From contig OZ237735.1 of NCBI GenBank assembly GCA_965178125.1, positions 1,302,001 to 1,366,000 on the forward strand: a stretch of 64,000 nucleotides of DNA, written 5' to 3'. A model generated the notes under the pieces. The model did not search any database, was not told the origin of the DNA, and saw only the letters and a list, made by a program, of their open reading frames with translations. Shown in pieces: positions 11,037-63,700 of the stretch. The DNA comes from Bilabrum cf. latius. Lineage: Eukaryota. The position numbers and the translations under genes were made by a program. The first letter of the stretch is position 1; every line of letters begins with the position of its first letter.

Positions 11037-11149
11037 GTTTGAAAATTGACCCAGCAATAATTTTGAGTGCCCGAACCGGAACACTCGAGCCCCAACGAAC
11101 CTTCGAATCTCGGCCAAGTCGCAACTTGAAAATTACAACGTGTATCGCA

Positions 11150-14100: not shown

Positions 14101-14815
14101 GCTGTTCCCTGTTGTGAAGGGGCAGATATCGCCGAGTCTTCAGAGGCACGGGTGGTCCTCCGTGTCGCAGCGAGAAAGGCGGCGCATCCGCGCTGCAAGG
14201 AAGCAGTGCCTCTTCAGCGGTGGTAGCTTGGACGTGGGGTCTGTGCCTGACGGCGCCCTGGTGGGCCTTAGGCTACGAATGCAGCGGAAGACTCGTGGTC
14301 ATGGAATCAAAGAGCCTGCAAGCCTTTCTGTTGAGTTGCTAGCCGCGTGGGATGCCTTGCTCTAGTCAGTCCGAGAGCTGTGCTCTGCCGCGACAGAGGC
14401 GCTTCCTTCGTTCATCCTGTGGGGCGCCTAGCCACCCGAGAGGGTCCTGCAGCTAGTGGGTCTGAATCGCACGGGGAGTGCCCCGCCAAGCGGTCGGTTT
14501 CTAGGAGCCTTGTTCCAAGTGCTGGACGATGCCGGGGGCTTGGCGGGGACAGCTGCTATCGGTAGTCTGGGCAGTAGCAGCGGCATGCGGTTCCTCAGGC
14601 AGCTGGGCAGTCTCAGCTGTGAGGTGTCCAGGCATGCCTCGGAATTGATGGATAGACACAAAGATTCAGGGGGGTTTCCATCAGGCTTGTGGGCGGGTTG
14701 CATCGCGGCTGCGATTGGGGTCCGGCTACTGATGCTGTGGGTATGGAGCTTCGCCCGGTGCGGGGGCGGCAGCGTGTAGAAGCGCCACTAGGAGCTGAAA
14801 TCGAAGGTAGACTGA
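11150..14815 (+). CDS. LMF2: Lipase maturation factor family ER membrane protein (LMF2-like), ~1221 aa, about 14 in-frame TAG
   Basis: Motifs GQTFLSFQWDSLL*EAGF, FKLMLLSGYVKL*SRC, YHFAT*PLPT, YGLFRSMTG, RPELIVEGS, F*PRFDWQMWFAALG (* = TAG). Ends KSKVD-TGA, a KxKxx ER-retrieval-type signal. Start ATG 11150 is the most plausible. Confidence 0.92.
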
Positions 14816-36045: not shown

Positions 36046-36435
36046 GGAAAACGGGCTGCTTAGACTAGCGTGTGGTGGACGCACCGGTGATCGAGCAGGT
36101 TTCAATGCGATTGTTTACGCACTTCTCTTTTCTTTTCATTGCCCATTTCAAATGAGGCATTCAATTATAGATCGGAGCACAGCGCGATCGGGGCAACAGT
36201 TCTATTCTTGTTTGCAATGGATCTTGGCGTTTCGGTAGGAGATATTGTAGAGCATTCCTTGAAAACAACTTCTGTTTCGGCTCGTCCTCCCCATGCTGTC
36301 TAGACTGCGTCGAAGTTGGCATTTCCCAGACCTGTGCTGTTGACTGGTACCGGAAGTGACGGAATTTCAGATAGGTTGAGGAACGCACGTCGTAAACGAC
36401 TGTAGAACGTGACTAGCAGTGCAGGTAACCATTCA

Positions 36436-39400: not shown

Positions 39401-41175
39401 CCTCGCCACTGCTGAAGGCTTGCGCTGCCGCAGCGACTGGATCGACCGGGATGCGATCTGCCGCGGCGTCCGACTTGCTTGGAACCGTCGCTGCCGTTGC
39501 GCAGCGCTGTGTCATGGTGGATCCCTCGCTGGAGCGAGCCGGCACGACGATCGGATCGATCATGCGGTGCTGCGCAGATGCCCTCTCTGGAGCCGTGGAA
39601 ATTAATGCGGAGGCGCTACCTAGAGCGTTGCCGTGGATGCCGGCGCACGTGAATCTACTGCAGAGGAACCGGGTCATGCTGGCGTGGTCGGCCACAAAGC
39701 TGTACCTGTCGTTGTCTGCAGCGACCGCCGGTGTGGAGCTGCACCGGCTGATGCGCCGTATAGCTTGGTCAGATCTACAGCTGTGCATGCCGGGCGATGA
39801 AGGTTACGCGGCGGCCCTCGTTGCGCAGGGGGTGCTGCTCCCTGTGCACATTGCTGCCGCCCTCCGCGACTCTGGCGCCGTCAAAGCAGAGCAGGTGGAA
39901 GCCACGGCCATGGCGGTGAGGCGAGACCTCATCGGGGTCTCCCTGTCCATGGTGGGCTCCACCGGGGCGAGGAACCGAGCTTCGCTCCAGTTGGCGAGGC
40001 GGGGGTGCGGAGACGTGCCAACTTTCCGCACGCCGTTGCCCCGGCGCGTTGCTCGTCCCATGATGCGACACATCATGTCAAGCTCGGTGATCATGCCGGA
40101 CTACAGGGCAAACACGCGGGGACTTCCGATGCCTTCAGGCTGGCACCTTTGGGCCATGAGGAGGGGGGCGGAGGCCACGGCCCTGCAAGCCAAAGCAGCG
40201 CCAGCCCAGGCTGGGTCTGCCCGGAACCCCATCGCATTGCTGTCATCCAGTGCATGGCTGCATGCAGTTGCAGTTGAGAGCCGTGGCGCGGCAGGCGATG
40301 CGCTGAAGCGAGCCGCGGCTTGGCATGCTTTCCGTTGCAGCGAAGCGGAGCCTACAGTGCTCCGCCATAGTCAAGTCGACAATCTCTTGTGCGAGATGCT
40401 GGCGACTGCTGGGGTGGGCCGAGATGGTCTCAACGACGCGCTCACGGGCGGCACTGGAGGCAAGGAGTAGGCCATGTTTGCGGTCGGGAGCGCGTGCAAG
40501 GCAGTGGCGGGCATGGGGGAGTCTGCGCCTGCGCTGTGCCACATGGTCTTGCTGCTGTGCATGGGAGCGGGGGCGCCTGCCTCCCTGCAAACCATCGCGC
40601 TGGCAGAGCTGAGGCGAACCAATGCGATCATGGCTCTTAGTTTTGAATCAGCCACAAGGCACGTCGGGGAAGAGGCTCGCAGGCAGCTCTGGCTCGAGTG
40701 CCTCGGGGCACGCAGCTCGGGTGGGCACGCGATCGGATCTGCCGAGCAGCTTGCCGCCGTCGGCAAGCAGGCCACCAGCTTGCTGAGCACCGAGCGAGTG
40801 TCTGACTAGGACCCTAGTCACGAGGGGGAAGGAGCGTGCGCATCTCTGGCGTTCGTTCGGCTTGTGTAGGCATCTGCTACGCACATTGTACAGCTAATGG
40901 GTGGGCACGCACATGATGCCGGTGGCACTGGACAGCGCGGGCCCTTGCTGTCAGTTGCCGAGGCGATGCATGCGCTTGATGGCAGAGCCAGCAGTGCAAT
41001 GGCCGTTCCTCTATCTGCAAGGAGTGCACTCCGCGTCTTGCAGGATGGTGGCCGGCCAGCGGCTTTGAGAGGGGTGTTGGCTTGGAAAGACGGGCAGCAG
41101 AGCGCGCTGCAGGGCTGGCTCCCTGCAGTGGATGCTACCACAAATCAGGCATTAGATCGCTTGAACAGACTATGA
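36436..41175 (+). CDS. RPAP1: RNA polymerase II-associated protein 1 (RPAP1/Rba50/IYO)-like, ~1579 aa
   Basis: Nine ORF fragments in one frame joined by TAG. RPAP1_N-like IESNASMIRGMDPKELEDSIEQAL..IPADLLSKLR, then DKLQWT and RFDLEG, then RPAP1_C-like LHHG...GYTLTDLVTLARSRVVG*RIIAL. Ends in TGA. Confidence 0.85.
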
Positions 41176-41868
41176 GTGGCTACTTTAATTGCTGCCACTG
41201 GCTGTGGTCCAGGTAAAGGCCGACGTCTCCATTCGCAGCATGCTTGCAGGGCTGAGTGCGCTCAGGTGTTGGCATTGTTTTGTCCACTGACCCAACACCG
41301 TTGTAACGCCTCTGGTTTGCCGGCAGAAAGGGGCCCCGCTTACCAGGGTGCGGAAACCGCTTCGTCATATACCCCCTGCGATGGATCGAAATGGAAGGAA
41401 GGAAGGAAGGAATTCTGGTTTAAGATGGCGTGAAGACGTTTGGCAGGGTTGAGTTGTGGTCGTACGCGGCGGTCGCAACTGGCGGTCGTGCAGGCAAACT
41501 AACTTGCGACCAACTGGGGTCCACAGTCCAAATTTCGGGGTGCCAGCACAATTCTTGTCCAGTTTTCGGTTCATGTGAGAATGATACGCGGTTGTCTATA
41601 CGTGCCCTTGTATTTTTACTTTAGCACATGTCATAGTTTCGTTGTTGGTTATGTCAGATATTCATAACGACGGTTTCAAAGCCCTAAATGGTTTAGGGAG
41701 GCCAGAAGGCACGCGCCGGAGATCTTGCCCTACTTTGTGCCTGACCAAGGCCAACAGCGCAATCACGGAGCCGTGTGGATACGTGATATGGTATGAACTT
41801 TTACACAAAGTGACTATTACCATGATCTCTTAGCCTACCTTGATGTTTGCGGTTGTTCGCAGACCGAG

Positions 41869-44800
41869 ATGGGCTTGAGGGCAATCTCACTCATTTTCGC
41901 TCTGATTGGAGCGTATCTCTTACCCCAAGCCAGCGGAAATTGTTCTGGCACTCGTCATTACCACCTTCGAGCGTCTGGATCTTAGTGGTGAGGCTACTTG
42001 TTGCCATAAAGCGGCACGCAACGCATGGCGCACCCACCTTGTGAGTGTTCGTTGTTTATGGCATTCGCAGGATCGCGGATGGAACCGGGCGGGGCACGAA
42101 CTATCGGTAAGATACATCAATAATGACCTTTTCTCAGTCTGAGGTATCTTATTGACGATGAGTCTGTTTCCTGCGCTTCCTCTAATTTCTAGCAGATCCT
42201 CGTTGAGTTGCTATTGGTGTGAGGGCGTACTAGTGCGCTTCAGCTGGCCCTCTAACTATTGATGTTATCGCTGCCATCAATAGTCTGATCTAAAGATACT
42301 CTAGCGCAACAGGATCGACACCTATCGCCCTATCGCAGACGCCTACTCTCCGTCCGGTGCCTTGACCTGGTACACTTGGAGCTATTTCGAGCTGACGTGG
42401 TCATCGTCGTGCACGAATGACTACATTCGCTTGCGCACGAGCCGCTCCTTCAGCTCCAGGCGCTACTGTGGCACAGCTAGATCGTATCCTAGCTCCCGCG
42501 CGCCGTCGAGCACGTTCTGGGGTTCAACCTTCGGGATCCACTTCAGGACTGGAACGCACCGACGCTGTTATTCATCGTGGTGGTGGTAAGGCGCATTGTA
42601 TTGCCATGATATCATGAGCTCTGGCTAGATTACCTACTGGCATGCTTCGCTCTCATTCTGCCTTCTAGTTCTGCAGGACTTACTGCTCCGGGCCGTACCC
42701 CTCGCAAGGATGTGAGACCTCGCGACTGGCCACAGGCAGCAGTTGCCGTGTAAATACAGCATCCAAAGATATCTTCAAGGGCATGGCTTCCCACATGTGA
42801 TACTGTAGATCTGTTGTGTTTTCGGGGTTTTCGTGTTTCTGTTTGGTTCCGACCGCCGCTAGCGACCACCGCTAGCGACCACAACTCAACCTCTTCCAAT
42901 CTTCTCAACAACCATTGCAATTCTTCGCAGGGGGAATCACTGTTTACTGGAATTGTCCAAGCGGTCGCTATCACCACTACAATGCGAACTCGTGTTACGA
43001 CTGCGGTGTTGGGCACTACCGGTCCGGTTGGTCTCGATCTCGCGGTTGCTCCCGCTGCTCCACGGGGTACTACCAGCCCAGCAACCGGCAGTCGAGCTGC
43101 CGTGCGTCGGGAACTGGCCATTACGTCGGCTCCACTGGATCGAGGTACCGTTACGCGTGTCCCGCGGGCCGGTACGGCAGCTCTAATGTCCAGCGATCGT
43201 CCTCGTGCACGGGGGCGTGTGCTGCAGGCTACTACTGCCCCTCCGGGTCCACGACCAACCGGCCCTCGGGGAGGCTCTGTCGACCAGGCAGGTACTCATC
43301 CGGTGGATCGGGTTCTGCAACGTGCCCCGGGGCCGTGGCGCGCGGTTACTGCAGCAACAACGGAGCTACAAGAAGCACCGGGCATGCCAGGTGCGGGCCC
43401 GGGCGGTACTGCCCGAACCTTGGCACCTCATGCTCCTCGCAGTCCGTCCCGCCCACAGGACGCTACACAACTCCGGATACTTCCTCGACTACCCCGCGAA
43501 CAGGCGTAGCCGTGTGCCGCGCCGGCCAGTACTGCTCGGGCGGCTTGAGCTACAACTGCCCAGCAGGCCGCTGGCGCTCGAGCACTGGCGCGTCATCGTC
43601 GAGCCACTGCACTGGGCAGTGCCAGGCGGGGTGCTACTGCCCCGCAGGCTCGACGGCATCCTGCCCTCGGGCGTGCGGAGATCAGAAGTACTACTGCCCC
43701 GCAGGTCGGGGCAGCCCGATCACCGTGCCAGACGGCAAGTACAGCTGCATCCCCGGGCAGGAGCCCACGTTCGCCAATGCCGACAGGCGCACGCACGCGT
43801 GTGACTGCCCGCCCGCTTACTCCTGCTCTGGCGGCGTCCGCACACCCCTGTTCGTGTGGACGGACAACGTGTGCAGCGCCAGCGGATCTCGCAAGGCTGC
43901 CGTCAACGAGAACGCCCGGAGCGCCGTGGCAGTGCAGGTGAACCTGGACGGTCTCACTGGTGGTTCGTACAGGATCACGGCTCAGACCAAGTTTGAGGAT
44001 GCCAGTGGGTGCCAGCACTCCACACCGTTCGAAGTGCTGAGCGACGGTCGCGTGCGTCTCAAGAGCACCCTCACCGCTGGTCTCTCTGCCGAGGAGTGCA
44101 CAGGGTACAAGGTGACCGTTGCCTACCGGTGGAGGGGTGACGACGTCACCACTTGCGCCATGGACATCGAAACGACCGACGTGAACGAGAGGCCCACGTT
44201 CGGGTCTTCTTCGTACTCGAGGGAGGTGGAGGAGGACGAGCCCGAGGACACCCAGGTGGGCGAGCCCATCACAGCCACGGATCCCGATAGGGGCCAGGAG
44301 CTGCTGTACTCGATCGTATCAGGAAATACGGGGGATGCGTTCCGCATCGGGTCTTGTTCCGGCCAGATCTACACGATGAAGCCGCTCGACCACGAGGGCA
44401 TCGGCTCCTACACCCTTCGCATCCGGGCGGCGGACACTGGCACCCCTCAATTCACCGTTGATACCACGGTGCGTGTCTCTGTGACCAACAAAAACGAGGA
44501 GCCCACGTTCCCCGAGGACGGAGACTACACATTCGAGGTGAACGAGGACGCAGGCGTGGGCGGCGCGTTCAGCCCGTCCTCTGCGGGGGCTCAGGATCCC
44601 GACGGTGACACCCTGGCCTACTCGCTCATCGGCAACGACCAGGCCGCCGTTGCCATCAACTCACAGACCGGTGCTCTCACCATCGCCAAGACCTAGCATT
44701 TCAACTACGAGCTGCCAGCCCAGCAGGTGCGCTCGTTCCGGATCAAGGCGTGCGATGCCGAGTTCTGTGCCGAGCAAGACGTCACGGTGACAACGATCAA

Positions 44801-47800
44801 CAGGAACGACCAGCCGGAGGTAACTTCGGGCCAGGAGTTCTTCATCTCAGAAGGGGCTAGCGCTGGGGATGCAGCGGGCACCGTGCAGGCTACCGATGAG
44901 GATGCAGGCAGCACGCTGGCATACTCGATCGTGTCAGGCAATGTTGGCTCTGTGTTCGGCATCAACAGTGGGACCGGCGCTATCACGCTTGCGAGTGGCA
45001 AGACCCTCGACCACGAGACCAGGGAATTGTACAGCCTGGTCGTGCGGGCCACCGACAGCGGCATCACGGGGCACACGACCGCCAAGAGCGGGGAGGCCAC
45101 GGTGACGGTGAGGGTGGACGACGTCAACGAGGCCCCCGTCCTGAGCGACATGAGCGCCTCCGTGGACGAGAACGACGCGGACGCAGAGATCACGCCGTTA
45201 CTATCCTCTGGCCTATCTGACCCCGACGGGATCCAGGGACAGACTTTCTTCTACACCATCGAAGGCGGCAACGACGACGGTCTCTTCTCCGTCACCGCGG
45301 CTGGCAAGCTGTCGCTGGCCTCGGCTCTGGACCATGAGGCCGCTGCGAGCCACGCGCTCACGGTCAAGGTGACGGATGGCGGTGGTCTCTCTGATACCGC
45401 CACCTACACAGTCAACGTGAATGACTTGGCCGAGCCGCCCCTCATCATGGAGTCGCAGTCGTTCAGCGTGGAGGAGAACTCGGCTGCTTCTGCCGGGAGC
45501 ATCGGTACCGTGCAGGTGACGGATGAGGATTCCACGACCGCCCAGCTTACCTTCAGCTTGGTCAGCTCTAGCGCCGCCGATAATTTCCGCATCTCGGGAG
45601 CGGGAGCCCTAACGCTGGCACCTGGGTTCTCTCCCGATTTCGAGTCTGCCAGCCAGTTCGTGTTCGAGGTCAAGGTGACGGACCAGAGCTCGCTCAGCAA
45701 TACCCAGTCCGTGACCGTGCTGGTGACCAACGTGAACGAGAGGCCGTCGATCTCGTCCCAGGAGCTCGCCATTGCGGAGCAGTATGGCACTGGCACTGAG
45801 GTTGGCACGCTCATTGCTTCGGATCCCGATGGTGATGCTCTTGTGTATGAGTGGACCTACTCCGGAGATGTGTTCCTTATGACTGAGAACGGTCTGGTGA
45901 ACCTCAACCAGCAGCCTTCCGGCCCTGGCACCACTCGCGCGACCGTCACTGTTAGTGATGGCGGCAGCCTGTCGGCCTCAGCCACGGTGACGCTTCGAGT
46001 CACGGACTCCAACTTCAAGCCGTCATGCGACCCTGGGAGGTTTACGATGGCCGAGAACTCGCCTGTGGGAACTGCCACCACGCCGTCAACGGGCCTCACC
46101 GTGTCGGATCGCGACACAGATGACAAGCATCGGTGGTCCATCATTGGGGACAACGTGGACTCCACATTCCAGATCGGCGCGACCGACGGGAAGATCTCAC
46201 TTGCCAAGTCGGTGCTTGACCACGAGACTAGGGGTTTCTATAACATCACCATTCAGGTCGAAGATGATGGTGCCGGCAAGCTCAAGGGCAGGTGCTTCGC
46301 CGAGATTGAGGTAACGGACGTGAATGAGGCACCAGAGCTGGAGAACAACCTGGGAACGTTCGAGTTCTTCGAGAACGACGACGATGGCACGGACGGAGGC
46401 GCCGTGGAGGGCGCAGACGTGGACGATGGCGACACGCTGACGTACTCGATCACCGAGGGCGACAGTACCGGTGCTTTTGCAATCGACAGCCGGACCGGTA
46501 ACGTGTCTGTGGCAGACAACACCAAGCTGGACTACGAAGACACGAGCAGCTACCGCCTAACCATCCAGGTGGAGGACAGCGGAGGCCTTAAGGATACCGG
46601 CAGGCTCACTGTCCTTGTGAAGAACGGCAACGATGCACCCTTCGGAAAGGACGTATCTGCTGCGACAGATGAGAACGTGGTCAACGCGCAGGTCACAACC
46701 GCGGCAGCCATCGACGAAGACGTTGGCCAGGGGCATGCCTTTGCTCTGTCCAGGACCAACAAGTACTGCTGGGCGCACACGGTGACCAGCCAGGAGGTCA
46801 ACACTCTCGTGGCAGTACGTGGCGCTCGGCTCCCCGCGGGCTCTTCGCAGGCCGAGGTCACTGTCACGTTCCGGCTTGCATCCAGGGGTTCTTCTCTGCT
46901 CGCCATGCGAGTAGGAGGATCGGGTACCAACGCGGCAGCGAGGTACGAGTTCGAGGTTGGCTGCGGATCGAGCCGCAACCAGGCCTGCATCCGCAGGTGC
47001 GGATCCGACGGCTCGTGCATCGATCTGGTGACCAGCGCCATCGCCAACTCGGGCGCAGGCATCGCTTTGGTGGACGTGGTGACAGGCGAGACCGGCGAGA
47101 CCGGTACTTTGGCCAACCTGTGCGCCACTGCCAACCGGCAGACGGGCGCCCTGTCCATCGGGCTGCGAGCCGACAACGAGCCGGGGACTGCCTGCAGCAA
47201 GACCGTGGCCAGTGCCACTGACAGCTCGACCGCCAAGCTTGATGTGCGTGAGGTTTACATGGAGTCCGCATTCGCGGGCACTCGTTTCACTAGCGTGTGT
47301 TTCGAGCCGTCCGCCAGCACGGACGCCGTTGGTTCCCGTGTCGGGCTCGTGGGCAGCACTGGCGCGATCAGCATGTCGACTGCCGGCGACTACGAGACGC
47401 AGCAGTTCCTCGGCTTCGAGGTGAAGGTCACGGACAACAACGTGGGCGACCTCAACCCCAAGGGTCTCACTGATTTCGGCACCATCATGATCGCCTTCCG
47501 CGACAAGAACGAGAGGCCCGGATGGCCATCGACCGTAGAGTGCAGCAACGGTGCCAGTGGCATGGTCAGCTGCTTCACGATCAAGGAGAACTCGGCCGCT
47601 GATACGCTGGTTGGTACCCTGGCGGCTGCTGTCGATCCAGATGCCCTTGCCCAACAGACACTCGCGTACACTTTGGGCACGGCGAATAACCTGGCCGGGT
47701 CCTCTGAGCTCTTCGTGGTCGGCAAGACTGACAGGCAAGTGCGCTTGAAGACGACCGGGTACATTTCTTACGAGGACACCAAGTCCTACCAGATCACTGT

Positions 47801-50800
47801 GACGGTGTCCGACGACGGTGACCCGGCCATGACCCAGTCTGGGCAGTTTGTCGTGGTTGTCGAGGACGTGAACGAGAAGCCAACGGTGGAGCGCGGACAG
47901 GTCTTCACAGTGGAGGAGAACTCCAACACGGGCAGCCCGGTGGGCAATGGCGCTGCGTTCCGCGCCTCGGATCCGGACTCCGAGGTGCACCCCCAGGACT
48001 GGGGCACGCTGTCGTACGAGCTGGTCGGCCTATCGAACTTCCCCAACGCCACCACGATCTTCTCGATCAACAACGCGACTGGCGTGGTGACCGTAGCTGC
48101 GGATGGCATGCTGGACTTCGAGTTCAAGAACCAGTACGACGCCACTCTTCGGGTCACCGATGGAGGTGGTCTCAAGGACGAGACCAAGGTCACCTTCCGT
48201 GTGCTGGACCTCAACGAGCCGCCCGTCATCTGGGATCAGGTGCGCGAGGTCAGGGAGGACGCTAACTTCCCCGACGCTGTGGGAGCAGAGATCCCCGCCT
48301 GGGATCCCGATTTTGGCCAGGATCTGATCTTCACGATCGTGGGAGGCTCTGCGCAGGGGCTGTTCACCATCAACAGGTGCAGTGGGCAGATCCAGGTTGC
48401 CACTGGCACCGCCCTCGATTTCGAAACCACGCGTAACTACACGGCCCGCATCTAGGTGTGCGATACCGGCCGCCCCGTGCTGTGCTCGCAGGCCACGACT
48501 GAGATTGAGATTCTAGATGTCAACGACCGCCCCTCGCTAACCGGTTCCACGGTGGAGGTGGTGGAAAACTCCCCCGTGGGAGAGCCCGTGGGGTCCCCTC
48601 TGCAGGGCTACGACGAGGATATCATCGGCAAGACCGTGGCTGGCTGGTATAACCTCACGTACTCGATCGTTGCAGGCGACTCGCGCAAGGTCTTCATGAT
48701 CGAGCCGCTCACCGGGCAGGTGCGCGTGGCTCGCGGAGAGCGTGGCCTGCTCAACTACGAGTCCAGTGATGCCAACCGGTTCGAGCTGGTCGTGCGTGTC
48801 AGCGATCAGGGTGGTCGCGGCGAGCCTGCTCTGCACGCGGAGGCCAAGGTGATTGTCAGTGTGACGAACATCAACGAGCCTCCAATTGCCGAGGACTAGA
48901 CTCTCACCATCGCTGAGAACGCGCCACGCACGCCGCGCCAGGCCGACGAGCAAGTCGGCGAATCGCTCAAGGCCGAGGACGAGGATGCAGGTGACGAGGG
49001 CAAGGTGTTTTGGGCCATCGAGAACGGAGATCCGGACGATCTGTTCAAGCTGGTGGGCGAAGGAGAGACCGGGGCCACCATCCAGCTCACGCAAGCAGGC
49101 GCCAGTGCCCTTGATTACGAGACCAAACCGGAGCACGTGTTGCTGGTGCGGGCGTACGATGGAGGTGATCCTAGCCTGAGTGCCTACGTCAACATCACGA
49201 TCAAGCTGCTCGACACGAACGAGAAGCCCAACCTTTGGTCGTCCCAGGAGCTCCGCATCGGCGAGCTGGCGTCTCTGCGCGCTCCCTTGCTAGGAGGCGC
49301 ACTCAACGCGACTGACCCGGAGGACGGCACCACGGCCGATGGCAAGCTTCAGTTTGAAATCCTCGGTGGAGACTCCAGGGGTGCTTTCGATATCAACACA
49401 GGTTCCGGCCAGATCTTCGTCGCGGATCCCAGCAAGCTCAACCACGAGGAAGTGGACGAGGTCAACTTGCTGGTGCGCGTGCGCGACTCGGGAGCCACGG
49501 CGGATGGCATCGAGGACCGCTTGATGCATCAGGAGACTGTCAAGCTGCACATTCTGGATGAGAACGAGGCGCCGTGGTGCATGGACGCCGTGTTCGATCT
49601 GGCAGAGAACTCTCCTTTGGGTCAGGAAGTGGGCACCATGAGCGGGGATGACGTGGATGACGGCGATGTGCTCTCGTGGAGCATTGCTGAGTAGCCGGCC
49701 ACAGCCGCTGGGGATACCGCGCCATTCGCCATATCTTCATTGACCGGATTGATCGAGGTGTCGGCGGATTCGCTGGATCTCGAGACGAAGGGCAGCTACG
49801 ACGTGACCATCAACATCACGGACGCTGGCGGTCTTGTCGGCCAGTGCAACGCCCGCGTCAATCTGCTCAACCGGAACGAGCGCCCCTGGATCACCGCAGT
49901 GCCCAGGCTATTCGTTCCGGCCAAGACTACGACCCAGGTGGGGCCCCCGCTTGCGCAGGAGTACCTCCGGGACCAGGATCTTATGGCACCTGGCGTGCGC
50001 GAGGCCCACACGTGGCAGCTCGTGTCCAGCACAAATCCTGACGACACGTTCACGATCGATATCGCTTCTGGGCAGATCGCTGTCGTGGACAATTCTACAA
50101 GTGCGCTAGTGTACCCGCAGGGTGGCCCTGGCCCCATCCACACCGTGAATGTGTCCGTTACGGACGCCGGCATTGACGGTCAGAAGCTCACGTTCGTGGC
50201 TCAGGTTGAGATCGAGGTGGTTGATAGGAATTTCCCGCCGCGTATCACCGGCCCCTTCGCTTTTTCGTTGGATGAGAACGTTAACTTGGACACGCAGGTT
50301 GGCATCGTCATGGGTACCGACGCCGACGGGCCACAGGGCCAGAAGTTGACGTACACCCTGCGCCCTGGCGGGCCCAACGTGAACAGGCCCTTCCCGTTCA
50401 AGATCGAGACCGTGGAAGACACTGGTCCTGATGGCGTGGGCACGGCCCGCATCTCTGTTGCCGACGCTGAGGGCGGCGTTGACTTTGAGGGCCCGAGAAA
50501 GGGCCGTTTCAACCTGTACGAGGCCATTGTGACCGCCACAGACGACCACGGCGAGTCGCCCCTGTCTGCCTCGCGTACCGTCCGCATCAGCATCAACGAC
50601 ATGCAGGAGGACCCTGTGTTCCCTATGGGAGATTCGGCTGCCGATGAGTACGTCCTCCGCGTGGTGGAGGGCGAGATGGCAGGCACCCTGGTGCGCGGCT
50701 CGGAGGAGGGCGCCCTGCGGGCCACGGATGAGGATTCCGCCGATCTCTACGGTGACGGTCTCTCGTATTCGTGGGGAGGATCCTCAGGGACGACCGCATA

Positions 50801-53800
50801 GTCCATGCTGCGGTTCGAGCCTTCCGAGGTGAACCACGCGAACATCACGCTGCGCATGGCCCTTGACCACGAGGCTCAGGCTGAGTACGAGCTACAGCTG
50901 GTTGCAACCGACTCTGCGGACAACACGGATGTCGCGATGGTGCGCCTGATCGTCGAGGACAAGAACGAGCCGAGCGTCTTCCGGAGGGTCGAGCGTCCCG
51001 ACGGCACCACGCTGACTGCAGGTGAGGCCTTGCAGGTGCGCGAGCTGGCGACTGGAGGCACCCACGTCGGCCGCGTTGTTGCGACCGATGAGGATAGCGG
51101 CGCTTGGGGTCGCATGCAGTTCTCGCTTGATCCCGATGCCCCATCTTCTTCATTTTTCACCATCGACGACAGCGGCAACCTCAGGCTTGCCTCAGGGGCT
51201 CGTCTGGACTGGGAGGATCAGGCGGGCTTTGACGTGGTAGTCGTAGTGCGGGACTCTGACCTGGAGGCGCCCCCGATCGTGGTGAACACGACTATCAGGG
51301 TGGAGGTGCTCAACGATAACGACGTCGCCATCACCTCGATCCACGTGACCGAGTCCTCTCAGGACGGCGGTCTAGGTGCTGAAGTGGGCGTCTCGGCTGC
51401 GGGCAGCGAGGGCCGCGCCATGTACGGTCAGAGTCACGGAGAGCTCGATTCACTCTTTGCCACGCGAGGAGGGGGCGTGGTGGAGATCTGGGGGGCTTCC
51501 TTTGGCAAAACGGCGCGCCGGCTCGCGGCAGAGGGTGAGTCCAGCGCCCTGGGCCGCAACCCCACGAGCGTGTCTGCAACCTTCGGACCCAGCGGCACTG
51601 AATTCGCCGCAAATGGCTGCCTGGTTGTGGAGGCCAACACGAGGATCTAGTGCACGATACCCGAGGGATACGGCCGGGACCACTTCTGGATCGTGACGGT
51701 GAACGGCGATCAGGTGGCAAACTCGATACAGAATGTGTCATCTCGCATCTTGGCCGGCAGTGCGGACGCAAGCACCGCAGAGAGGAACCCTGAGACTGGT
51801 GCGCTGATGCCGCTGCAAAGGCTGCGCATGTCGGGTTACTTCCCGCCCGTCATCACCGCGGCTGCCTCCAGCTTTGGGGCCGCTGATGGGTCTGTGGACG
51901 GCGTGCTTCCGACTTCGGGCGGCTCCGTCAGCACTGCGGGCGACTACTCCATCGTGCTCACCGGCACGGATCTCGGACCTATCGGCAGCGAATTGCCTAA
52001 AGCCGCCCGCGACGCCATGCCTACGCAGCGCCTGCGGTACGGCGCACAGAGTGCCATGATGTCTCGCCCCGATGGTGCTGCTACCCTCAACCTGGAGACC
52101 ACCGGGTGCCAGGTATCCGTGGCGCATACCGAGATCAGGTGCGATGTGGTGCCGGGCGCAGGCCACAGCTTCGTGCTGACCGTGGATGTGGGCTAGCAGC
52201 GCTCCATGGAGTTCTCCAACACGACTCTGAGGTACATGCGGCCATCCATCACCAGGGTGTTGATGCCGCTCAAGAACGCCAGCATGCCCGAGCAGGGTGT
52301 GCAGCCCATCAACACTCGTGGCGGTGCCGAAGCAGGCCTGATCGCGATCGAGGGTACCAACCTGGGACCCGCGAGCCTTGGCCCGCAGTACGTGCTGGCC
52401 TTCTACTCGGCCAACTATGCTGAGGGCGACACGGCTGGGGTAGAGGCTGAGGCTGCCGCACCCCGCTCCCTGGACCTGCTCGCTGCTCAGCGAGAGCAGA
52501 TCGTGGACAACGACGGTTTCGTGTACCAGGCCCTTGTGTGCAGGGTGCCTGTCGAGTTTGAGCATACTGGAATGCTGTGCGAGCCCTCAGCTGGTACCGG
52601 CAGGGACCATCGATGGAAGGTGGCTGTGGCTGGACTGGCCAGCGCTGCCAGCACGGACACCACCAGGTATAGCGCCCCTGTGCTTAAGAGCGTGAGCGGG
52701 CCTGGCGCCGTGAACGCACCTACTGTTGGTGACGTTGCCATCCTGCTAAACGGCGATTTCTTCGGCCCTGTGACGCCTGTCAACGACGAGGGCGAAATCC
52801 AGGGCACCGCGGCGACCCTGCCGAGCGCCGACTACGGTCGCGTGAACGATACACATGGTCGGACGTGGCCCTACTTCGCCGGTGTGAGCTGCCGCGTGGT
52901 TGTGGCGCACGTCCAGATCGAGTGTAAGGTGGCCGAGGGCAGCGGAGACAAGCTGGTGTGGTCTGCATCGGTCGGTGGCCAGACCTCCGGGCCGCAGGAA
53001 ACCGCAATGTCCAGCTACCATCCCCCGGTTATCTCTCTGTACAAGGGACCCGGCTCTCGCCTCGCCTACACGAACGGCTCCCAGATTGTGGACATCGAGG
53101 GCAGGAACTTTGGGCCGGTCGGAACTCCTGTGGATCGTGCTCTGTATGGCAGCGAAGAGCTCGACGTGCAGTTCGACGCAACCAACTGCTACGTGCTTGA
53201 GGCACACGAAATCGTGCGATGCCTCACCGCTGTGGGTGCCGGTGAGGGCCTCCGCTGGAAGTTGACGGTGGACGTGCAGGAGAGCGTGAGCCCCACGACG
53301 TCCTACTCGCCTCCCCTCATCACCAGTTTCGAGAGCGACGCCGGCAGCTTGCCTGTGCATGAGCTCAGCACGGATGGTGGCGACTGGGTCTTGATCCGTG
53401 GGCAGAACTTTTCAGTGGCAGAGCACCTGGAGGAGGTGACCTACGGGCCTGCTGGTACCGGGTTCACCGCGCTGAACTGCTCCATCTACGAGGACCACTT
53501 CACACTGCGGTGCCTCACTGTGCCTGGCCCTCCGGGATAGGCCATGAAGTGGATCGTGCGCGTGGGTGGGCAGGCAAGCCAGCCGTCCGTTGCAGTAACC
53601 CGCTACGCGCCTCCGCGCGTGCTCAGCGTCAACCCGATCTCCGGCCAGACGAACGGTGGGCAGACAGTGGTGGTCACAGGTACCAACCTTGGGCTGGCCT
53701 GGGACACCGCAGCCGTGGGCGTCCGCTTCAACGCTGCCGGCGAGATGGACGATGAAGCGTCTCGTTCCCTGCAGGTGCTGGACTTGTCGGCGTTGCCGTC

Positions 53801-56800
53801 TGGATTCCGTGATGGCATCCCTGACGACATGCGCAGGTACCTCACTCTCTCGCGACTTGGAGGTCCGGATGGTGCCCGCCTCATGCGGGGCATCGCGCTG
53901 GCTCAGCCGGCTGGCTTCCCCTTTGATGCCGCTGACTATGATGACTCCCAGGAAGCCGCTGATGCCGCGATGGCCGCTGCCATGCTGAGGCTGCGCGAGT
54001 GGGTCGCTGGCTTGGAGCGCGTGCGCGTGAGCGACGAGCGGATCCTGCAGCACCGCGGACTGCACCAGGTTGAGTTCGAACTGCCCGAGGGCTTCGGCAC
54101 GGACCGCGAGGTGTTCCTTAGCATCGGCACGAACGAGGCTCTGTCCAACGTGGGTCTGTTTGACTTCCTGAGGCCAGCAATCGACAACATCGCCCCCGAT
54201 CGCATCCTGACCGACTTCGGCATCGACCCTGAGAGCCTCGAGGCGCAGACATCGCTGCGTGTGATCATCGAGGGTGAAAACTTCTGCAACGGCAAGGATG
54301 GCTGCGGTTCCGTGCGGATTGATGGGCTGCCCGTCGACACGTGGAGCTGGAACCACAACGAGATCGTGCTGCTGTACCGCAAGGACCCAGCAGAGTCGGC
54401 CACCAAGGAGCACACGGTGCAGGTGATCGTGGGCGGGCAGGTATCGGAGGAGGCCACCTTTGCCGAGCCCATCCCTTCCTTCGATGGCAGAAACCAGCCC
54501 AACGACTACGAGAACGTGCCTACGGATGCCGTTGATCCTGCCACCGGCAACCGTATCGTGTTCGAGATCTTCGGCGTTGCAGACCTGAACCGCGTGCCCC
54601 TGGACCAGCTCAATGTCACCATTGGCGGGCGCCAGTGCGAGCAGGTCGCAGTGAACCCGTGCCAGGAGCCGACGGACGGCCGCACGTGCTCCAGTGGATC
54701 GTGCTGCCCTGACAATACCCAGGCCACCACGTACTCGACCCTCAGCTGCCTCATGCCTCAGGGAACAGGGGCCGGAAACATCGTGCTGATCGCAGTAACC
54801 GGAGCTACCAGCCGAGAAGACAGCGGGCTCACTGTGTCCTACGGCAAGCCGCAGGTGGCTCGCGTGATCACTCTGGAGGACTACCCCGGCCTGCCCGCCG
54901 GCAGCGACCTCCTTGCCCCCGACCGCTTCTTCGACTCGGAGGCGCACCAGCAGGCGTGGCTCGACTTCGAGGCGGATGGCTCCACGGGCACACCACCAGC
55001 TTTGCCCAGGCCCCGCCGTGGCATGCCCACGTTTGGCTGCCGCGTGCGCATCGAGGGCATCAACTTTGGCACACCAGCGCTTGCTACCCCGCTGGTGGCA
55101 CTGCCCGAGGTGGAAGTGGTCCACAATGCCAGCATGGGTCACTTGCACACTCACACTGCTATTGAGGCTATGATTGGCGCCGGATCTGGCGTCGTCCGTG
55201 CCCTTACTGTCGCAGTCACCGACCAATTCTCGAACGCCCGGCGCGGCCTGAGGTACGGACAGCCGATCGTGACTGCCGTGCAACCCGAGCTGTACGTCGC
55301 AACCGACCCCGCAGGTCCGGCTCCGACCTCCGGTGACGCTCTCGTGCGCATTTCCGGTCGCAACTTTGGCCCTGCCGGCCCCGCCGATCCTACCCTGTAG
55401 GTGCAGGTGGGTGGCAGGTCGTGCGTGGTTGACGCGGTCCGTGACCCGTGGGCAGCAAACTCCCAGCATTCTTCGATGCTTTGCCGTACCCCTGCAGGGC
55501 AGGGCAGGGACCTGCCGGTGCACGTCGAGCTGGCAGGATAGTCCAGCGACATCTCCGATGAGGCACCCGCCGGCGCGCTGGTTGACTCGTCTATGCAGTC
55601 GGATGAATCCTCTCCCATCGTGAGGTACGCCTACAACCGACCCGTGGTGCGCTCCCTGATGCCAAGGTCGGCACCAACTGGCGGCCGCCGCATTGAGTTG
55701 CCCTCCGTGAATGAGACCAGAGACAACCCGTACGCCATGTGGGAGATGTACTCGTGGCTGATCGACTCGGAGGAGGTGCGTCTGGAGGATCCTGGGTCGT
55801 TCAGCAGCGACGACGATGCCATCATCGCAACGGTAGAGGGCATGGACTTCGGTCTTCAGGGCAACGCGTGGGTGGAGTTCTACGTGCCGCCGTAGTAGGG
55901 AAGTGCCTCGCGCAGACTGCAGCAGTTCGCCGATTTCACTCGTGCGCCCACTGGGCCATCCCCCGGCTTCCCGCTGTCTGCTGATTCGCTGCTGGTGGCA
56001 CCCGCCGACATGCTGGTGCACAACCACACCCACATGCGCTTCCCTATCCCTCGGGGAAGTTTCACTCAGAGCGACATGGTCATCGTGGTCTGGGTCGGCG
56101 GGCAGTCATCCGCCAACTCGCCCGAGGAGGCCGACCCGAGGGTCAGCATGGTCTTCGACCCGCCTCGCGTACACGGGGTCAAGAACTTCGAGCGAGATCC
56201 GGAGGACTGCGAGGACGTGGATCGCTGCTTTAACACGTATGATGCTGCCACTGGGACGTACACGAGGCACTGCCGCAAGGCGCCCGCCGAGTGCTACGAC
56301 ACGATCGGACAGTTCTACCTAGAGCTGGTCGGCGAGTCGTTCGGTACCGACGGTGACGTGAACGTGCGTGTCGGCGAGTGGGACTGCCCGCTCGCCGCCG
56401 ACAACGAGATCCCTGGCCGTCTGGGCTCACACTCCCACTTCCGCCTGGTGTGCCGCGCCCCAGCTGGCTACGGTGACAACCTCCCTGTGACCGTTACTGT
56501 AAACGGCAGGTCCTCTTTGGATGACCGCGTCGAGTACGTGCCCGACAGGACTGAAGATACGGGCTCTCGCATGGTGGTGGTCGAGGAGGCACCGGAGCCT
56601 CCTATCTTCGCCTATGATCCCCCTATCGTCATGGCTGTGCAGAGCTCTGAGCCCAACGCTGACGGAGACGACGTGCGAATCCGTGGGAAGAACTTTGGCG
56701 GGGAGCCTACGCTTGTAGAGATCACCATCGGTGGCCTCGAGTGCCTGGAGCCCCAGTGGCTGAACGACGGGCTGCTGCAGTGTGATGCTCAGCGCGACAA

Positions 56801-59426
56801 GGTGGGTCTCAAGAACATGACTATTCTGGCCGCTAACCGCACCGAACCGTACGTCATCTTTGACTACGAAGAGCTGATCACGTTCCAGTGTGGAAAGGAC
56901 TTCTATGGTCTCGTAGGCGAGTACTGCGTGAACTGCGAGGAGGAGCGCATCGGTGCTGTGTGCCCCGGCGGCGAGACCTACGAGGACCTGGTCACGAGCG
57001 ACGAGGGATTCTGGAGGCTGGACTTCAACATCACCAGCGGCGAGTCGATCGACACTCGGTACTGCCACCAGAGCAGGAACGAGTTCCACGAGCTGTCGGT
57101 GCTCAGGGAGCAGCAGTGCATGTACACGGCACCGTGCGAGCCTACGTGGGCCTGTGTCGGGAACAACACCTGCGCCGAGGGATACACCGCAGAGAGGTGC
57201 TCGCAGTGCGTCAAGGGCACGCATTATCGGATCGGTGGTGAGTGCAGGAAGTGCCCTGACAGGCCATGGCTTATCTTCGTGGGGATGGGAATCGCTGCCA
57301 TGATGGCAGGGACCGCTGGTTACATCCTCAACAGGAAGGGTATCAAGAACGTGCTGATCATGATCTGCGCCGACACCTTCCAGGTGCTGGCCCTGTTCTC
57401 CAACGCACGCATCCGCTGGCCCCCGGTCCTGGAGCGCTTCTTCCAGCTCCTGTCCGCCTTCAACCTGAACGTGGAACTCGCTGCCCCGGAGTGTATCCAG
57501 CCCGATGTGACCTACGAGCAGAAGTTTGCAGCCACTGTGCTTTTGCCCGTCGTGGTGGTAATTCTGTTCTTCTCAGTGTATCTGGGACGCCTGCTGTACA
57601 AGATGTGCTGCATGAGCAAGGGCAAGGAGCACCTGCACGCCCATGCGCCGCAGCTGATCAGCTCGCTCATCATCCTGTCGCGCGTGTGCTACCTGTTCGT
57701 TACCCAGGCTGCTCTCAGCACCGTGAGCTGCCTGTAGACGACTCCTCCGGACCCACAGGGAGTGACGTACATGGATGGTCTACTTGACTACCCGTGCTGG
57801 CAGCCAGGCTCCAAGCAGCTGGTCCTGTTCCCGTTCGGCATGGCAGCATTCCTGGGATACAGCATCGTGCTGCCTCTGGCCATGTTCTGGTTCGTCCGCT
57901 CCAACAAGAATTCGATCAAGCACGACCAGATCCTGCGTGCGGCAGGCACCGGCAACGACAACAAGAGCAAGCTGTACCACTTCCGCAAGACGTGGCACCA
58001 GCTCTACTACCCATTCAAGCCCGGGAGCAGCGCTTGGATGATCATGGTCATCACCCGCAAGTTCGCCATCGCCACCATTGCTCTGGTGTTCCGTGTCTCC
58101 CCGACGTACCAGATGAGTGTGCTGATGCTTGCCCTGTTCGCTGCCTTCGTGCTGCAGATCCGCCACGAGCCCTTCATGTCTCGCGGTGACTAGGGCCGCG
58201 TGATCGCCGAGCATCGTGTCAAGGTGCTGACCAGCATCGAGCACGCCCGGATCGAGTCCGAGATCCAGGCTATGCTGGAGAAGAACTACAAGAGGACGCA
58301 AAAGGTCGACGTGCTGCTCGACTCGCGCCGCTCCTCCAACCATGTCGGCGAGCAGATCGTCAAGTACCTGCTGGACTACAACCAGGTTGAGTCCTTCCTA
58401 CTTGGCTGCGGCATTCTCGTGTGCCTTGCTGCCGTCATGCTGGCCTCGAGCCGATTTGATGACGACCAGATCGACTACTACCGCAACGAGTACGACGCCA
58501 TCACGTGGGCAACTGTGCTCATCCTCGTGGTTATCGTACTGTACGCGCTGATCGTGCTGGCCCTGGACATCTACTTCGGCGTCGCGCCCGAGCATGCAGC
58601 CGCCACGTTACAGTCGTGTGGTTGCTGCAAGTCTATTGCCGAACGCGCGAACGCTCACGACGTTGCCAAGCGTGGCAAGGGCGGCAAGAAGGGCGCCGAG
58701 ATGCTGCACGACGACGGCGAGGAGGACCTGCAGATGGCCAGCAACCCGCTGATGATGCAGGCCATGAACAACGCCAGCTCGTCATCCACCGGTGTGGAGA
58801 CCGGCATCTCGATCGAGAGGCTGCTCGCCATGGAGAACCCACCCCCCAAGGAATCGTGGGCAGGCGTTCGCCTTTGGATGCGCAGCCTGCACGGATCCGT
58901 GGAGCAGCTCAAGGAGCGGCTGCACGAGCAGCAGATCGAGGCTGCGAAGGGCACCGCTGCTTCGGACGGTGCCGCCGCCGTGGCCTCTGGTGGACGCCGC
59001 CGGAAGGGCGGTGCGATCACCAAGGCTGCCGCAGCATCGGGCGGCAGCAAGCGTCGCCGGTTCGGGCAGCAGGCTCCGCGCAGTGGCAACCTGAGTATGG
59101 GAACTGGCTCCGGGAAGAAGCAGCGTTCCATGCGCTCCCTACTGAGCACTGGTCGCAAGGGTGCTCGCCTGGCGGGAGTGTCTTCGCCTTCGTCCACCCG
59201 GAGCGAGGAGGAGCAGAAGGATGAGTCCATGATGATGAACCCTCTGCAGCAGCCGGTGACCGGCGATTCCACACCACTCGCTTCCGCTGAAGCAGAGAGC
59301 AAGCGCCAGGAGGATGTGGCCAGCGCCGGGGCCGCCTCTCCTTCTGCCGCCGCGTCATCTGCTGCTGACGCTCTCGAGGAGGGCGTCAACCCGATGGCTA
59401 GGCGCATCGCCGGAAAGTCGGAGTGA
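41869..59426 (+). CDS. Giant cell-surface receptor, ~5650 aa: signal peptide - CUB - Cys-rich (GCC2/GCC3-like) repeats - ~21 cadherin repeats - IPT/TIG repeats - Cys-rich - ~9 TM helices - cytoplasmic tail. Exons 41869-41987, 42071-42106, 42196-42218, 42339-42585, 42677-42711, 42931-59426
   Basis: Thirteen ORF fragments from 42915 to 58200 share one frame, separated only by TAG (15 TAG in total). Cadherin Ca-binding motifs DxNExP, AxDxD, LD(H/Y/F)E. IPT motifs (GxNFG, VxVGGQxS). CPAGxYC repeats. CUB-like NY...CYW / FEL...C.NDY...RYCG. Signal MGLRAISLIFALIGAYLLPQASG. Ends in TGA. Confidence 0.9.
41988..42930 (+). other. Cluster of five GT-AG introns (41988-42070, 42107-42195, 42219-42338, 42586-42676, 42712-42930) with 36-, 23- and 35-nt microexons
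   Basis: All have GT(G/A)AG donors and GCAG acceptors. Phases chain consistently and yield a coherent CUB domain after a signal peptide. Confidence 0.75.
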
Positions 59427-60393
59427 GGCTGAGCCGTACTCTGGCTGATCCATTGTGCCTGAGCATGGGGCCTTTCAGAATTGTAGGGAGACTGTTCCCT
59501 CAACCATTGTGATAGTGAGGTAGGCGGGGTGCTGGGGACCGTTCTTGGCTAGGTGCTTTGTGTGAGCTCATGCCAAGGAGACGCCCAGTCCTTCGTGTGG
59601 TGGCAGCACGATTTCGCTTGCAAGTCGTGTTGTCGTCATTGGTGATTTCTGGTTTTATTGCCGCGCGCGGTTGGCTGTTCGAGTCAGTGCTGTCTGTGTG
59701 TTGTGGTAGGGTCGCTTGGATTCATAGACTCCAAGTCAGGCCCTGTCTGCGCCAGCAGTTGCGGCTGATCTGCCGGCCAGCGTTGGACCGTGGTATGTCG
59801 TGGTGTAGAAGCATGGTAAGCGAGTGAAAAGCGCTTTCTCGGAGCTGTTCACGTCGTGAACTTGGATTGCAGTTGGTGGTATTGCCGGTGAGGAGTTGCG
59901 TGCGGTTCGACTAGAGCTTAGGCGTTTGTGCCCGCTTTAGACCGGCACCCCACGTTCTTCATGGGCAATCACCCCCTCTGCAGCTGGGTTCGAAAAGCGA
60001 CTGGCTGCAACCGGTCTGCACTTTGACTTGCTGCTTGTGCTTCTTCGGCCGCGTCACCTCGGTAAATCCCCGCTTGCGACCTTGGTCGTGTAGCGTCCTG
60101 CTTCACTTTGCTAAATTGCTTGTGCTTTTACCATCTTTTCTGATAATAATCAATGTCCATAGACAGAGTCATTGTGTGGGGAAAAAATCAAATCAGTCAC
60201 TGTTGCTTTCTAATCATAACCCCATTGGCCTATGCGTCTAGTTTGGTTCCGCTGGCGGTCGCAACCGGGAATTGCGACCAAGCCAACGGATTGCTGACGC
60301 GCACACCCTCTCTGTGTTCAGGAGAGGGGCGGGGATTGGGAAAATTCAAAGCCTGCTGCAAAAGGCCTTCAGCAAACCTTGTTCTGAAACAGT

Positions 60394-63291: not shown

Positions 63292-63700
63292 CAGCCCGAT
63301 CTTGGCGAGCCTGCGAATGAGGGCAAATTTGGATGTTGTTCTACCGCATGCTATCAACATAACATAACTATAAGTAACAGTTTAGCAAGAGAAGCTTACA
63401 TGATCCCCTGAATTGGTTTTGCGCTGTCGGAATATGACGCGCAGCCCTTCTGTGATATACATAATACGGCACGCTACTAACACTCTAGACGCGCTCCTCG
63501 CCATGGCGGCCGCCAACGTCAAGACATGGTTGAACCAGAATGGGCAGTATGACGGGGTGCCGGCAGGGGGCGCCGGATGGAACGCGAACGCTGACGCTCT
63601 CCAGGGGGAAGTGGGTCCCTCTTTCGAACAAAATATCACATCCCCCATGCACTCCAGCCGCAAGCAAATCCAGTGGATAATCCTCAAGCTGTGGATCTTA

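Follow-up and report, generated by a model that had tools for sequence, protein, structure and literature searches.

We analysed 64,000 nt of Bilabrum cf. latius DNA (NCBI GenBank assembly GCA_965178125.1, contig OZ237735.1, positions 1,302,001 to 1,366,000 of the forward strand; this whole stretch is called the window, and positions below are counted from its first letter) and found at 41869..59426 a single real, transcribed gene of a GC-rich microbial eukaryote, composed of a 5' untranslated region (5'UTR) exon and six coding exons and encoding a protein of 5651 aa. With a probability of about 60%, we read this locus as a single TAG-decoding gene for a giant Ca2+-dependent contact or adhesion receptor of a family like the nonagonal cadherins of stramenopiles, in which a membrane module resembling transient receptor potential (TRP) proteins would transduce the contact. 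The protein carries, in this order, Cys-rich repeats, cadherin repeats (20), IPT/TIG repeats (12), a stalk and a predicted transmembrane (TM) region. An initial annotation had proposed one gene with this domain order and a product of ~5650 aa at 41869..59426; the order stood, and the extent proved exact.

Under translation table 11 or standard stops, the forward strand from 42.8 to 59.4 kb is fragmented into many open reading frames (ORFs) closed by TAG codons, such as those ending at 44696, 48455, 49694, 50801, 51650, 52196, 53540, 55400 and 57737 (+). Taking TAG as sense yields a single frame at 42816..59426 of 5536 aa with 15 TAG codons, and the stop-to-stop frame at 42801..59426 (+) holds 0 TAA and 0 TGA, with a GC content at third codon positions (GC3) of 0.78. 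The ATG at 41869 lies in a different frame from that of the large exon, so introns are required and the parts must be joined by splicing. We therefore looked at contigs from four public runs placed on 41400-60400, namely X5, X6 and X7 (from two studies), which are RNA-like by guess, and X1, which is DNA-like. One contig each from X5, X6 and X7 skips 41988-42070, 42107-42195, 42219-42338, 42586-42676 and 42712-42930, all with GT..AG ends, and one X1 contig runs unspliced across 41400-43233 without any of these five joints. Together with an intron in the 5'UTR (41575-41862, +, GTGAGA..GCAG), the five coding introns give six, with GTRAGR donors and GCAG acceptors.

The resulting gene model opens with a coding exon at 41863..41987 (+; joint 41987/42071 in X5, X6 and X7), which contains the ATG at 41869, a signal-peptide-like start of ~23 aa, the beginning of a CUB-like region and an in-frame TAG at 41983. 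It is followed by micro-exons of 36 nt (42071..42106, +; seen in the spliced contigs of X5, X6 and X7 and not in X1) and 23 nt (42196..42218, +; spliced contigs of X5, X6 and X7), by the exon for most of the CUB-like region (42339..42585, +; spliced-contig joints and a Cys/Trp/Tyr pattern), by a further micro-exon of 35 nt (42677..42711, +; joints 42585/42677 and 42711/42931), and by the large last coding exon at 42931..59426 (+), whose 16496 nt are covered by the open frame and by contigs and hold 14 in-frame TAG before the TGA stop at 59424-59426. Those 14 TAG bear out the earlier expectation that standard-code annotation would split the gene into more than 13 pieces. The spliced coding sequence of the six coding exons comes to 16956 nt, i.e., 5651 aa plus TGA, with 15 in-frame TAG and 0 TAA or TGA. 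Upstream of 41863, a trans-spliced leader was considered and ruled out: the loose end of the X5 and X6 contigs before 41863 matches the window exactly at 41560..41574 (+), 290 nt upstream, and is thus the 3' end of a cis-spliced 5'UTR exon. A probable 3'UTR extends over 59427..60153 (+), weakly hinted at by contigs of X5, X6 and X7 that end at 60149-60153 and by X1, which continues to 60340.

Within 42931..59426, no GT..AG joint was present in the RNA-like runs X5, X6 and X7, both X5 and X6 had depth in 30/30 bins, and the X5 contigs differed from the window in no letter at any listed place, so that the TAG codons are present in RNA-like contigs. One continuous mRNA of ~17 kb is likely. As a side observation, summed contig depth climbs from 5' to 3' in the three RNA-like runs (in X5 from 1.7 to ~30) and is flat in X1; such a rise is the expectation for 3'-biased cDNA of one long transcript, contig depth being a poor measure. 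Another observation concerns a joint from 55650 to 55734 in X1, X6 and X7, which skips 83 nt, has GC..AC ends and is not a multiple of three. We rejected it as an intron, since the DNA-like X1 holds the same joint; its probable origin is an allele, a paralogue or an assembly path induced by repeats within the IPT array.

The reading of TAG was examined across the window. Seven long ORFs (the count leaves out the GH2 ORF) contain 83 in-frame TAG versus 0 TAA, where ~23 TAA would be expected from their CAA:CAG ratio if TAA were used like TAG. In-frame TAG occurs in every long window ORF, as exemplified by those at 23922-35240 (-), 36091-41172 (+) and 10427-14812 (+), and TAA and TGA are absent from those frames, which mostly end in TGA and in a few cases in TAA. 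For the meaning of TAG, we aligned a lipase-maturation-factor gene (LMF1), with X at each TAG, against 120 homologues, the named ones among them being of mixed taxonomy, which gave seven usable columns. Two TAG sites fall in Gln columns (118/120 and 115/120) and four in mixed columns; the log10 likelihoods summed over all seven columns are -8.72 for Gln, -11.64 for Thr, -12.54 for Asp and -12.85 for Leu. The neighbouring giant gene has one TAG in its BEACH domain that stands opposite a Gln of LRBA (Asn in neurobeachin), and three more TAG there lie in variable columns. The cadherin array itself offers a further case ('..ED-TAG-TLTIAEN'), in which TAG occupies a position held by Gln in three sister repeats ('GQVFTVEEN', 'SQSFSVEEN' and 'SQELAIAEQ').

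Because Gln fits the LMF1 columns best and the LRBA and sister-repeat alignments agree, TAG most probably encodes Gln in this genome, with TAA and TGA kept as stops. The 64-kb window contained no tRNA gene and no Rfam match, and our literature searches returned no stramenopile reported with a reassigned nuclear TAG. A code of this kind would be a more unusual feature of the locus than the receptor. It also has a practical side, namely that standard-code gene calling shreds such giant genes in TAG-recoded lineages.

To describe the ectodomain, we combined Pfam with repeat hidden Markov models (HMMs) iterated on the window protein itself; residue numbers follow P0001, in which residue 1 corresponds to nt 42816 and the first 38 residues are intronic. 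Exon 1 encodes a typical signal-peptide-like start. The CUB-like region, ~120 residues spread over exons 1-4, was recognized by eye from its Cys/Trp/Tyr pattern; the exon at 42339..42585 alone, an 81-aa piece of this four-exon region, had no Pfam match at E<=1, including CUB (PF00431), a domain of ~110 aa. Next come, at 42931..44213 (+), ~400 residues of Cys-rich repeats of the CxxC..G.Y type (ephrin-receptor-like or GCC2-GCC3-like) and a linker, with a sub-threshold Pfam match to Ephrin_rec_like (PF07699; E=3.4e-4, 20.8 bits, below the 23.1 cut-off). Several relatives, including P0166, P0008 and P0052, have this Cys-rich N-terminal region as well.

Cadherin (PF00028) matched over 16 stretches with E=3.3e-179 and 582.4 bits against a cut-off of 28.8, and further Pfam matches on the array were Cadherin_4, Big_9 and Cadherin_CELSR2_9th (E=4.3e-20, no single stretch passing). 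Our own HMM resolved 20 repeats, of which eight lie at residues 480-1262 and eleven at 1598-2818, with one partial repeat at 1500-1546. They form two modules of extracellular cadherin (EC) repeats, both called from PF00028, our own HMM and the Ca2+ motifs: module 1 with 8 EC repeats at 44214..46640 (+), and module 2 with one partial and 11 full EC repeats at 47286..51329 (+). Between them lies a non-cadherin insert of ~215 aa (46641..47285, +) that has no Pfam match and only one weak match among 310 stored relatives; its single-sequence AlphaFold model, with a predicted local distance difference test (pLDDT) score of 33, is unusable. Across the array, the linker motif D/N-x-N-D/E-x-P occurs 17 times at a spacing of ~105 residues, an LDxE-type motif 14 times, a DxD..LxY-type motif in 16 pattern matches (~14 of them at the expected repeat position), and an xE[END]-type motif in ~15 of 18 printed matches. 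The cadherin Ca2+-binding motifs are thus kept, and the array is predicted to bind Ca2+.

The cadherin modules are followed by an IPT/TIG array of 12 repeats, in two sets of six (51330..56852, +), called from TIG (PF01833, E=2.4e-41) and from our own HMM, which placed six repeats at residues 2883-3588 and six at 3911-4671. The array is interrupted by ~320 aa, the C-terminal ~180 aa of which are conserved in Cafeteria and environmental relatives (P0161, P0002, P0152 and P0163). A membrane-proximal Cys-rich stalk (56853..57260, +) completes the ectodomain; it resembles DUF7630 (PF24633) below the cut-off (E=1.1e-4), and DUF7630 was found in 8/24 aligned members.

Hydropathy, an alignment of relatives (A1) and an AlphaFold model agree on a nine-helix membrane module at 57270..58565 (+). 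Nine hydrophobic segments lie at residues 4819-5250 (nt 57270-58565), and the model built with A1 (23 relatives) reached a pLDDT of 82.4 and a predicted template modelling (pTM) score of 0.80, with nine long helices at the same places, in line with the ~9 TM helices proposed earlier. In the same model, a beta-hairpin separates helix 4 from helix 5, and helices 5 and 7 are followed by helical inserts on the cytosolic side. Directly before helix 6, A1 shows the consensus RLYY.FKP....W.LVI..RKF, whose YY.FKP....W....RK motif is assigned to the cytosolic side. With the ectodomain outside and nine passes, the tail would lie in the cytoplasm; all three invariant Cys (C90, C169 and C191 in A1) would then be in extracellular loops, a placement that fits. 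Invariant residues also occur in module loops assigned as cytosolic.

According to the translation, the presumed cytoplasmic tail (58566..59423, +) has ~286 aa of low complexity, rich in Lys/Arg and Ser. In the part covered by the model, from module residue 474 onward, the pLDDT stays under 50, and the tail is predicted to be disordered. Within the tail (58566-59423) we observed three short N-P-L/M motifs, a conserved 'NP' in the tails of relatives in A1 and a WW domain in one relative; the N-P motifs may be docking motifs.

The closest Pfam family of the module is PF06011 ('TRP', fungal TRP-like), which it matched with E=4.2e-5 and 23.0 bits, below the cut-off of 28.5, pairing module residues 103-338 with profile positions 156-360 of 426. 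The same family appeared at E<=0.1 in 8/24 A1 members and at E<=0.01 in 7/30 further members, six of these on profile positions ~274-344 and P0078 on 228-343, i.e., on the conserved motif and helices 6-7. The initial annotation had taken LYYPFKP..W....RK as recalling the Flc/Pkd2-type membrane domain: the PF06011 matches do fall on this motif, but all of them stay below the cut-off. When the TM part of P0157, a Cafeteria homologue, was used for a protein-language-model search, the best named cluster was 'TRP C-terminal domain-containing protein' (0.92; PF06011 on 13% of its members), followed by clusters that combine Ephrin_rec_like and PF06011.

A check by AlphaFold and Foldseek, suggested earlier, delivered the confident nine-helix TM model, but no PDB fold matched that model at E<=1e-3, and for the insert between the cadherin modules it gave only the pLDDT of 33. 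The A1 profile had no match at E<=1 among PDB sequences, and no solved PF06011 structure turned up in the PDB fold and profile searches. No match to 7tm_2, GPS/GAIN, PKD_channel or REJ was found at E<=0.01 in the C-terminal 2698 aa or at E<=0.1 in the TM module. Judged from these comparisons, the module appears to be a remote relative of the PF06011 type, which we do not class as a member; in the tests run, it is not a seven-TM (7TM) adhesion G-protein-coupled receptor (GPCR) and probably not a canonical six-TM TRP or polycystin channel.

Next, we followed the C-terminal region through environmental and sequenced eukaryotes. A HMMER query of 701 aa, made of the last IPT repeat, the stalk and the membrane module, was run against 1.84 billion cluster representatives (50% clustering) and returned 2970 proteins at E<=1e-3, of which 1371 also pass E<=1e-10 and 453 pass E<=1e-30. 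Among the best 150 of the 2970, many are 2000-7780 aa long and have the match at their C-terminus. Our own repeat HMMs found both repeat types in 56/150 and TIG-like repeats in 105/150 of these best matches, many of which are fragments, and both types in 55/63 of those with >=2500 aa. Pfam on 12 large matches detected Cadherin and TIG in 11/12, with TIG only in P0002, and some of these matches add LamG-like, Kelch, F5/8-C, Sushi or Ephrin_rec_like domains.

A word-index search limited to proteins of 3044-9688 aa returned 26 proteins at E<=1e-20, and 26/26 carry both PF00028 and PF01833. One is a EukProt transcript, and five belong to Cafeteria roenbergensis (FNF31_07613, FNF31_07112, FNF31_07794, FNF29_07834 and FNF29_05030); two shorter Cafeteria entries appeared in another word-index search. 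The proposed search for the same architecture elsewhere had hits in five Cafeteria proteins, one EukProt transcript and environmental eukaryotes. The five Cafeteria proteins share the layout: each ends in a TM module, preceded by 15-19 cadherin-like and 10-11 TIG-like repeats. In contrast to the window protein, no match to the 215-aa insert between EC modules was found in them, and they are complete under standard-code annotations, where they are named 'hypothetical protein' or 'Cadherin domain-containing protein'. Over the 741-aa TIG, stalk and TM region they are 35-40% identical to the window protein, and at only this identity the host is not a close relative. Since 26/26 giant relatives combine Cadherin and TIG and Cafeteria has at least five annotated paralogues, the full architecture, as judged by domain searches, is widespread, multi-copy in at least one sequenced stramenopile and not peculiar to this genome.

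Among 28 environmental relatives whose database labels were looked up, the only names are 'cysteine-rich repeat protein', 'Celsr2, partial [Symbiodinium sp. KB8]' and 'hypothetical protein ... [archaeon]'; for the relatives P0003 and P0302, they concern a 1734-aa relative (44% identical) labelled archaeon and a 90%-cluster member labelled Celsr2. Automatic names such as 'Celsr2' or '[archaeon]' on these relatives are misleading.

Literature searches on Cafeteria and cadherin gave an expression study only, and the current version of PMC10690189 does not contain the term. In the expression study, a cadherin gene and IPT-domain genes of Cafeteria burkhardae are up in stationary phase (PMC7852580). 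This rise is compatible with a role in the search for food or surfaces; the study does not name the present genes.

How does this protein relate to known systems? The term nonagonal reportedly refers to nine TM passes; by this criterion, the nine hydrophobic segments and nine modelled helices amount to a predicted agreement. The 'nonagonal cadherins' of stramenopiles were introduced by Fletcher, van West and Gachon (2016, Gene 593:64-75) and are cited in PMC7409359, PMC8164589 and PMC11603286. In the passages that cite them, the authors of the family are quoted as proposing an interaction with host cell surfaces (PMC8164589), and a 'tri-modular' oomycete-specific nonagonal subfamily is mentioned, with the Phytophthora parasitica gene PPTG_11709 named (PMC7409359). 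Because of its EC repeats, nine predicted passes and stramenopile relatives, the window protein fits the little-studied nine-pass nonagonal cadherins rather than a new kind of receptor, a likeness drawn by features. Both are protist proteins in which a multi-pass (nine-helix) membrane domain carries cadherin repeats, both have EC repeats in modules split by non-cadherin sequence, and the nearest named relatives of the window protein are those of the stramenopile Cafeteria roenbergensis. In contrast, the window protein has two EC modules where the cited passage of PMC7409359 speaks of a 'tri-modular' oomycete subfamily, and its host reads TAG as sense. An architecture special to this genome was not supported: the initial annotation's own ground for refutation, a full architecture that is already described and widespread, largely holds, given the 26/26 giant relatives with Cadherin and TIG and the nonagonal cadherins described in 2016.

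A second point of comparison is PF06011, represented by S. pombe Pkd2, Trp663 and Trp1322. S. pombe Pkd2 is described as starting with a signal peptide and an Ig-like domain outside the cell, followed by nine TM helices ('unlike most polycystins') and a tail that is mostly disordered (bioRxiv 10.1101/2022.08.11.503631), and membrane stretch reportedly activates its Ca2+ permeability (PMC9727806). The Ig-like domain, nine TM helices and mostly disordered tail of Pkd2 find their counterpart here in an IPT repeat and stalk directly before nine predicted helices and a tail modelled with low confidence, and the weak matches fall consistently on the same part of the profile. The differences are that the window ectodomain comprises ~4800 residues of cadherin and IPT sequence versus one ~150-aa lipid-binding domain, and that 54/54 members scanned score below the cut-off.

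Compared with CELSR/Flamingo and the long cadherins of animals and choanoflagellates, the window protein shares long Ca2+-binding EC arrays on a multi-pass protein and the idea of adhesion signalling, but its module has nine TM helices and is TRP-like, not a 7TM adhesion GPCR; Pfam scans of the window protein found no GAIN/GPS, no EGF/LamG block and no catenin-binding tail. IPT/TIG arrays are also found on surface receptors such as fibrocystin/PKHD1, plexins and the Dictyostelium Tgr proteins. These resemble the window protein in the tandem IPT/TIG, membrane-proximal stalk of a large receptor, whereas they span the membrane with one TM helix and lack cadherin repeats.

Taken together, these features suggest the following mode of action. 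Ca2+ would stiffen the cadherin rod, and the rod and the IPT array would project ~0.1 micrometre from the cell, where the extended ectodomain could bind a surface, prey or another cell. Load or binding would be passed to the nine-TM module, which, being remotely Flc/Pkd2-like, might answer with an ion (Ca2+) or other cytoplasmic signal. Several observations weigh against this reading and the gene model under it. No contig spans the whole gene, and the contigs break where loose ends enter look-alike repeats. That X5-X7 are RNA is a guess, and the spliced contigs are the only sign of transcription. In LMF1, the TAG at residue 129 of the queried stretch (11162-13756, +) falls in a column that is Leu in 107/120 homologues, which might reflect a genuine substitution or point to ambiguity. 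The PF06011 gathering score (28.5 bits) was reached by 0/54 members scanned, and no protein of oomycetes, diatoms or brown algae was among the results of the word-index searches.

The main alternative, possible although we regard it as unlikely, is a purely structural adhesin: the cadherin/IPT rod would fasten the cell to surfaces, prey or kin, and the nine-TM module, neither a channel nor a signal transducer, would do no more than anchor it robustly or serve in trafficking. All direct evidence concerns extracellular adhesion-type repeats, no channel family was matched at its Pfam cut-off, no structural match to a channel was seen, and the host cell surface interaction quoted from the nonagonal authors (PMC8164589) would suit an adhesin. 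Yet no other part of the family is conserved as widely as the TM module, with 2970 matches, many of them bearing Kelch, F5/8-C, LamG or Ephrin_rec_like ectodomains, and its invariant cytosolic-loop residues point to conservation beyond an anchor's need. Because the module is shared across thousands of proteins with differing ectodomains and has these invariant residues, the best-supported interpretation of the sequence data is that it does more than anchor the ectodomain.

Analogy with Pkd2 suggests that the module may act as a stretch- or contact-gated cation pathway, to which we would give roughly one chance in three among the functional readings. The fullest version would unite tether and channel in one polypeptide: a ~0.1-micrometre cadherin/IPT rod, stiffened by Ca2+, would pull directly on a Ca2+-permeable nine-TM channel of the Pkd2/Flc type, and contact with prey or a surface would become a Ca2+ signal. 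We offer it as a speculative and rather doubtful idea. If true, the protein would correspond in protists to what the cadherin tip-link plus its transduction channel are in animal hair cells, and a large protist superfamily of 'Cys-rich/IPT + TRP-like nine-TM' proteins would be contact-gated channels.

It is improbable that the nine-TM module is instead an Flc-like transporter or carrier (flavin- or haem-related) that the ectodomain targets or regulates. The nearest Pfam family is PF06011, to which we take the yeast Flc proteins to belong, but the match stays below threshold and covers no more than profile positions ~156-360, and an adhesion ectodomain of ~5000 residues would have no obvious role on a carrier.

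Far less credible is that the protein belongs to the CELSR/Flamingo-type adhesion GPCRs or is homologous to canonical polycystins; the initial annotation had seen a conceptual likeness to Flamingo/CELSR or polycystin adhesion sensors, with a different assembly. The Cadherin_CELSR2_9th match (E=4.3e-20, no single stretch passing) and the 90%-cluster relative labelled 'Celsr2, partial [Symbiodinium sp. KB8]' at NCBI speak for it, but the module has nine TM helices, not seven, 7tm_2, GPS/GAIN, PKD_channel and REJ matches are lacking, and no GPCR was prominent in fold searches; with no CELSR-type 7TM/GPS and no canonical polycystin channel domain found, the likeness is not supported. Hardly worth weighing, finally, is an artefact in which several genes or a pseudogene are read through real TAG stops, or in which the assembly is chimeric: the frame is broken 15 times under the standard code and the 83-nt joint from 55650 to 55734 occurs in both DNA-like and RNA-like contigs, but TAG, unlike TAA and TGA, stands in frame in every long window ORF with homologues, homology crosses TAG sites, the Cafeteria proteins have the same domain order, and contigs from four runs, both DNA-like and RNA-like, agree with the window.

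A nonagonal-like contact receptor with a transducing module would be of interest beyond this genome. Heterotrophic flagellates are the main grazers of bacteria, and to our knowledge hardly anything is known of how they recognize prey or surfaces. With 2970 representatives at 50% clustering, the family is plentiful in environmental data; it is also multi-copy in the culturable Cafeteria, and its remote Pkd2/Flc link yields a concrete hypothesis, namely contact- or stretch-gated Ca2+ entry.

Two observations concern the surroundings of the gene. Downstream, a 432-codon open frame at 59828-61126 (+) has no family match and is probably not a gene; it runs over the probable 3'UTR of the cadherin gene as well as the 3' end of a convergent GH2-like gene (60397-63381, -). 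The neighbouring giant gene at 23922-35240 (-) has 3773 codons, encodes FYVE, PH-BEACH and BEACH (E=2.3e-115) domains and contains 34 in-frame TAG, so that this FYVE/BEACH gene, too, would be shredded under standard-code annotation.

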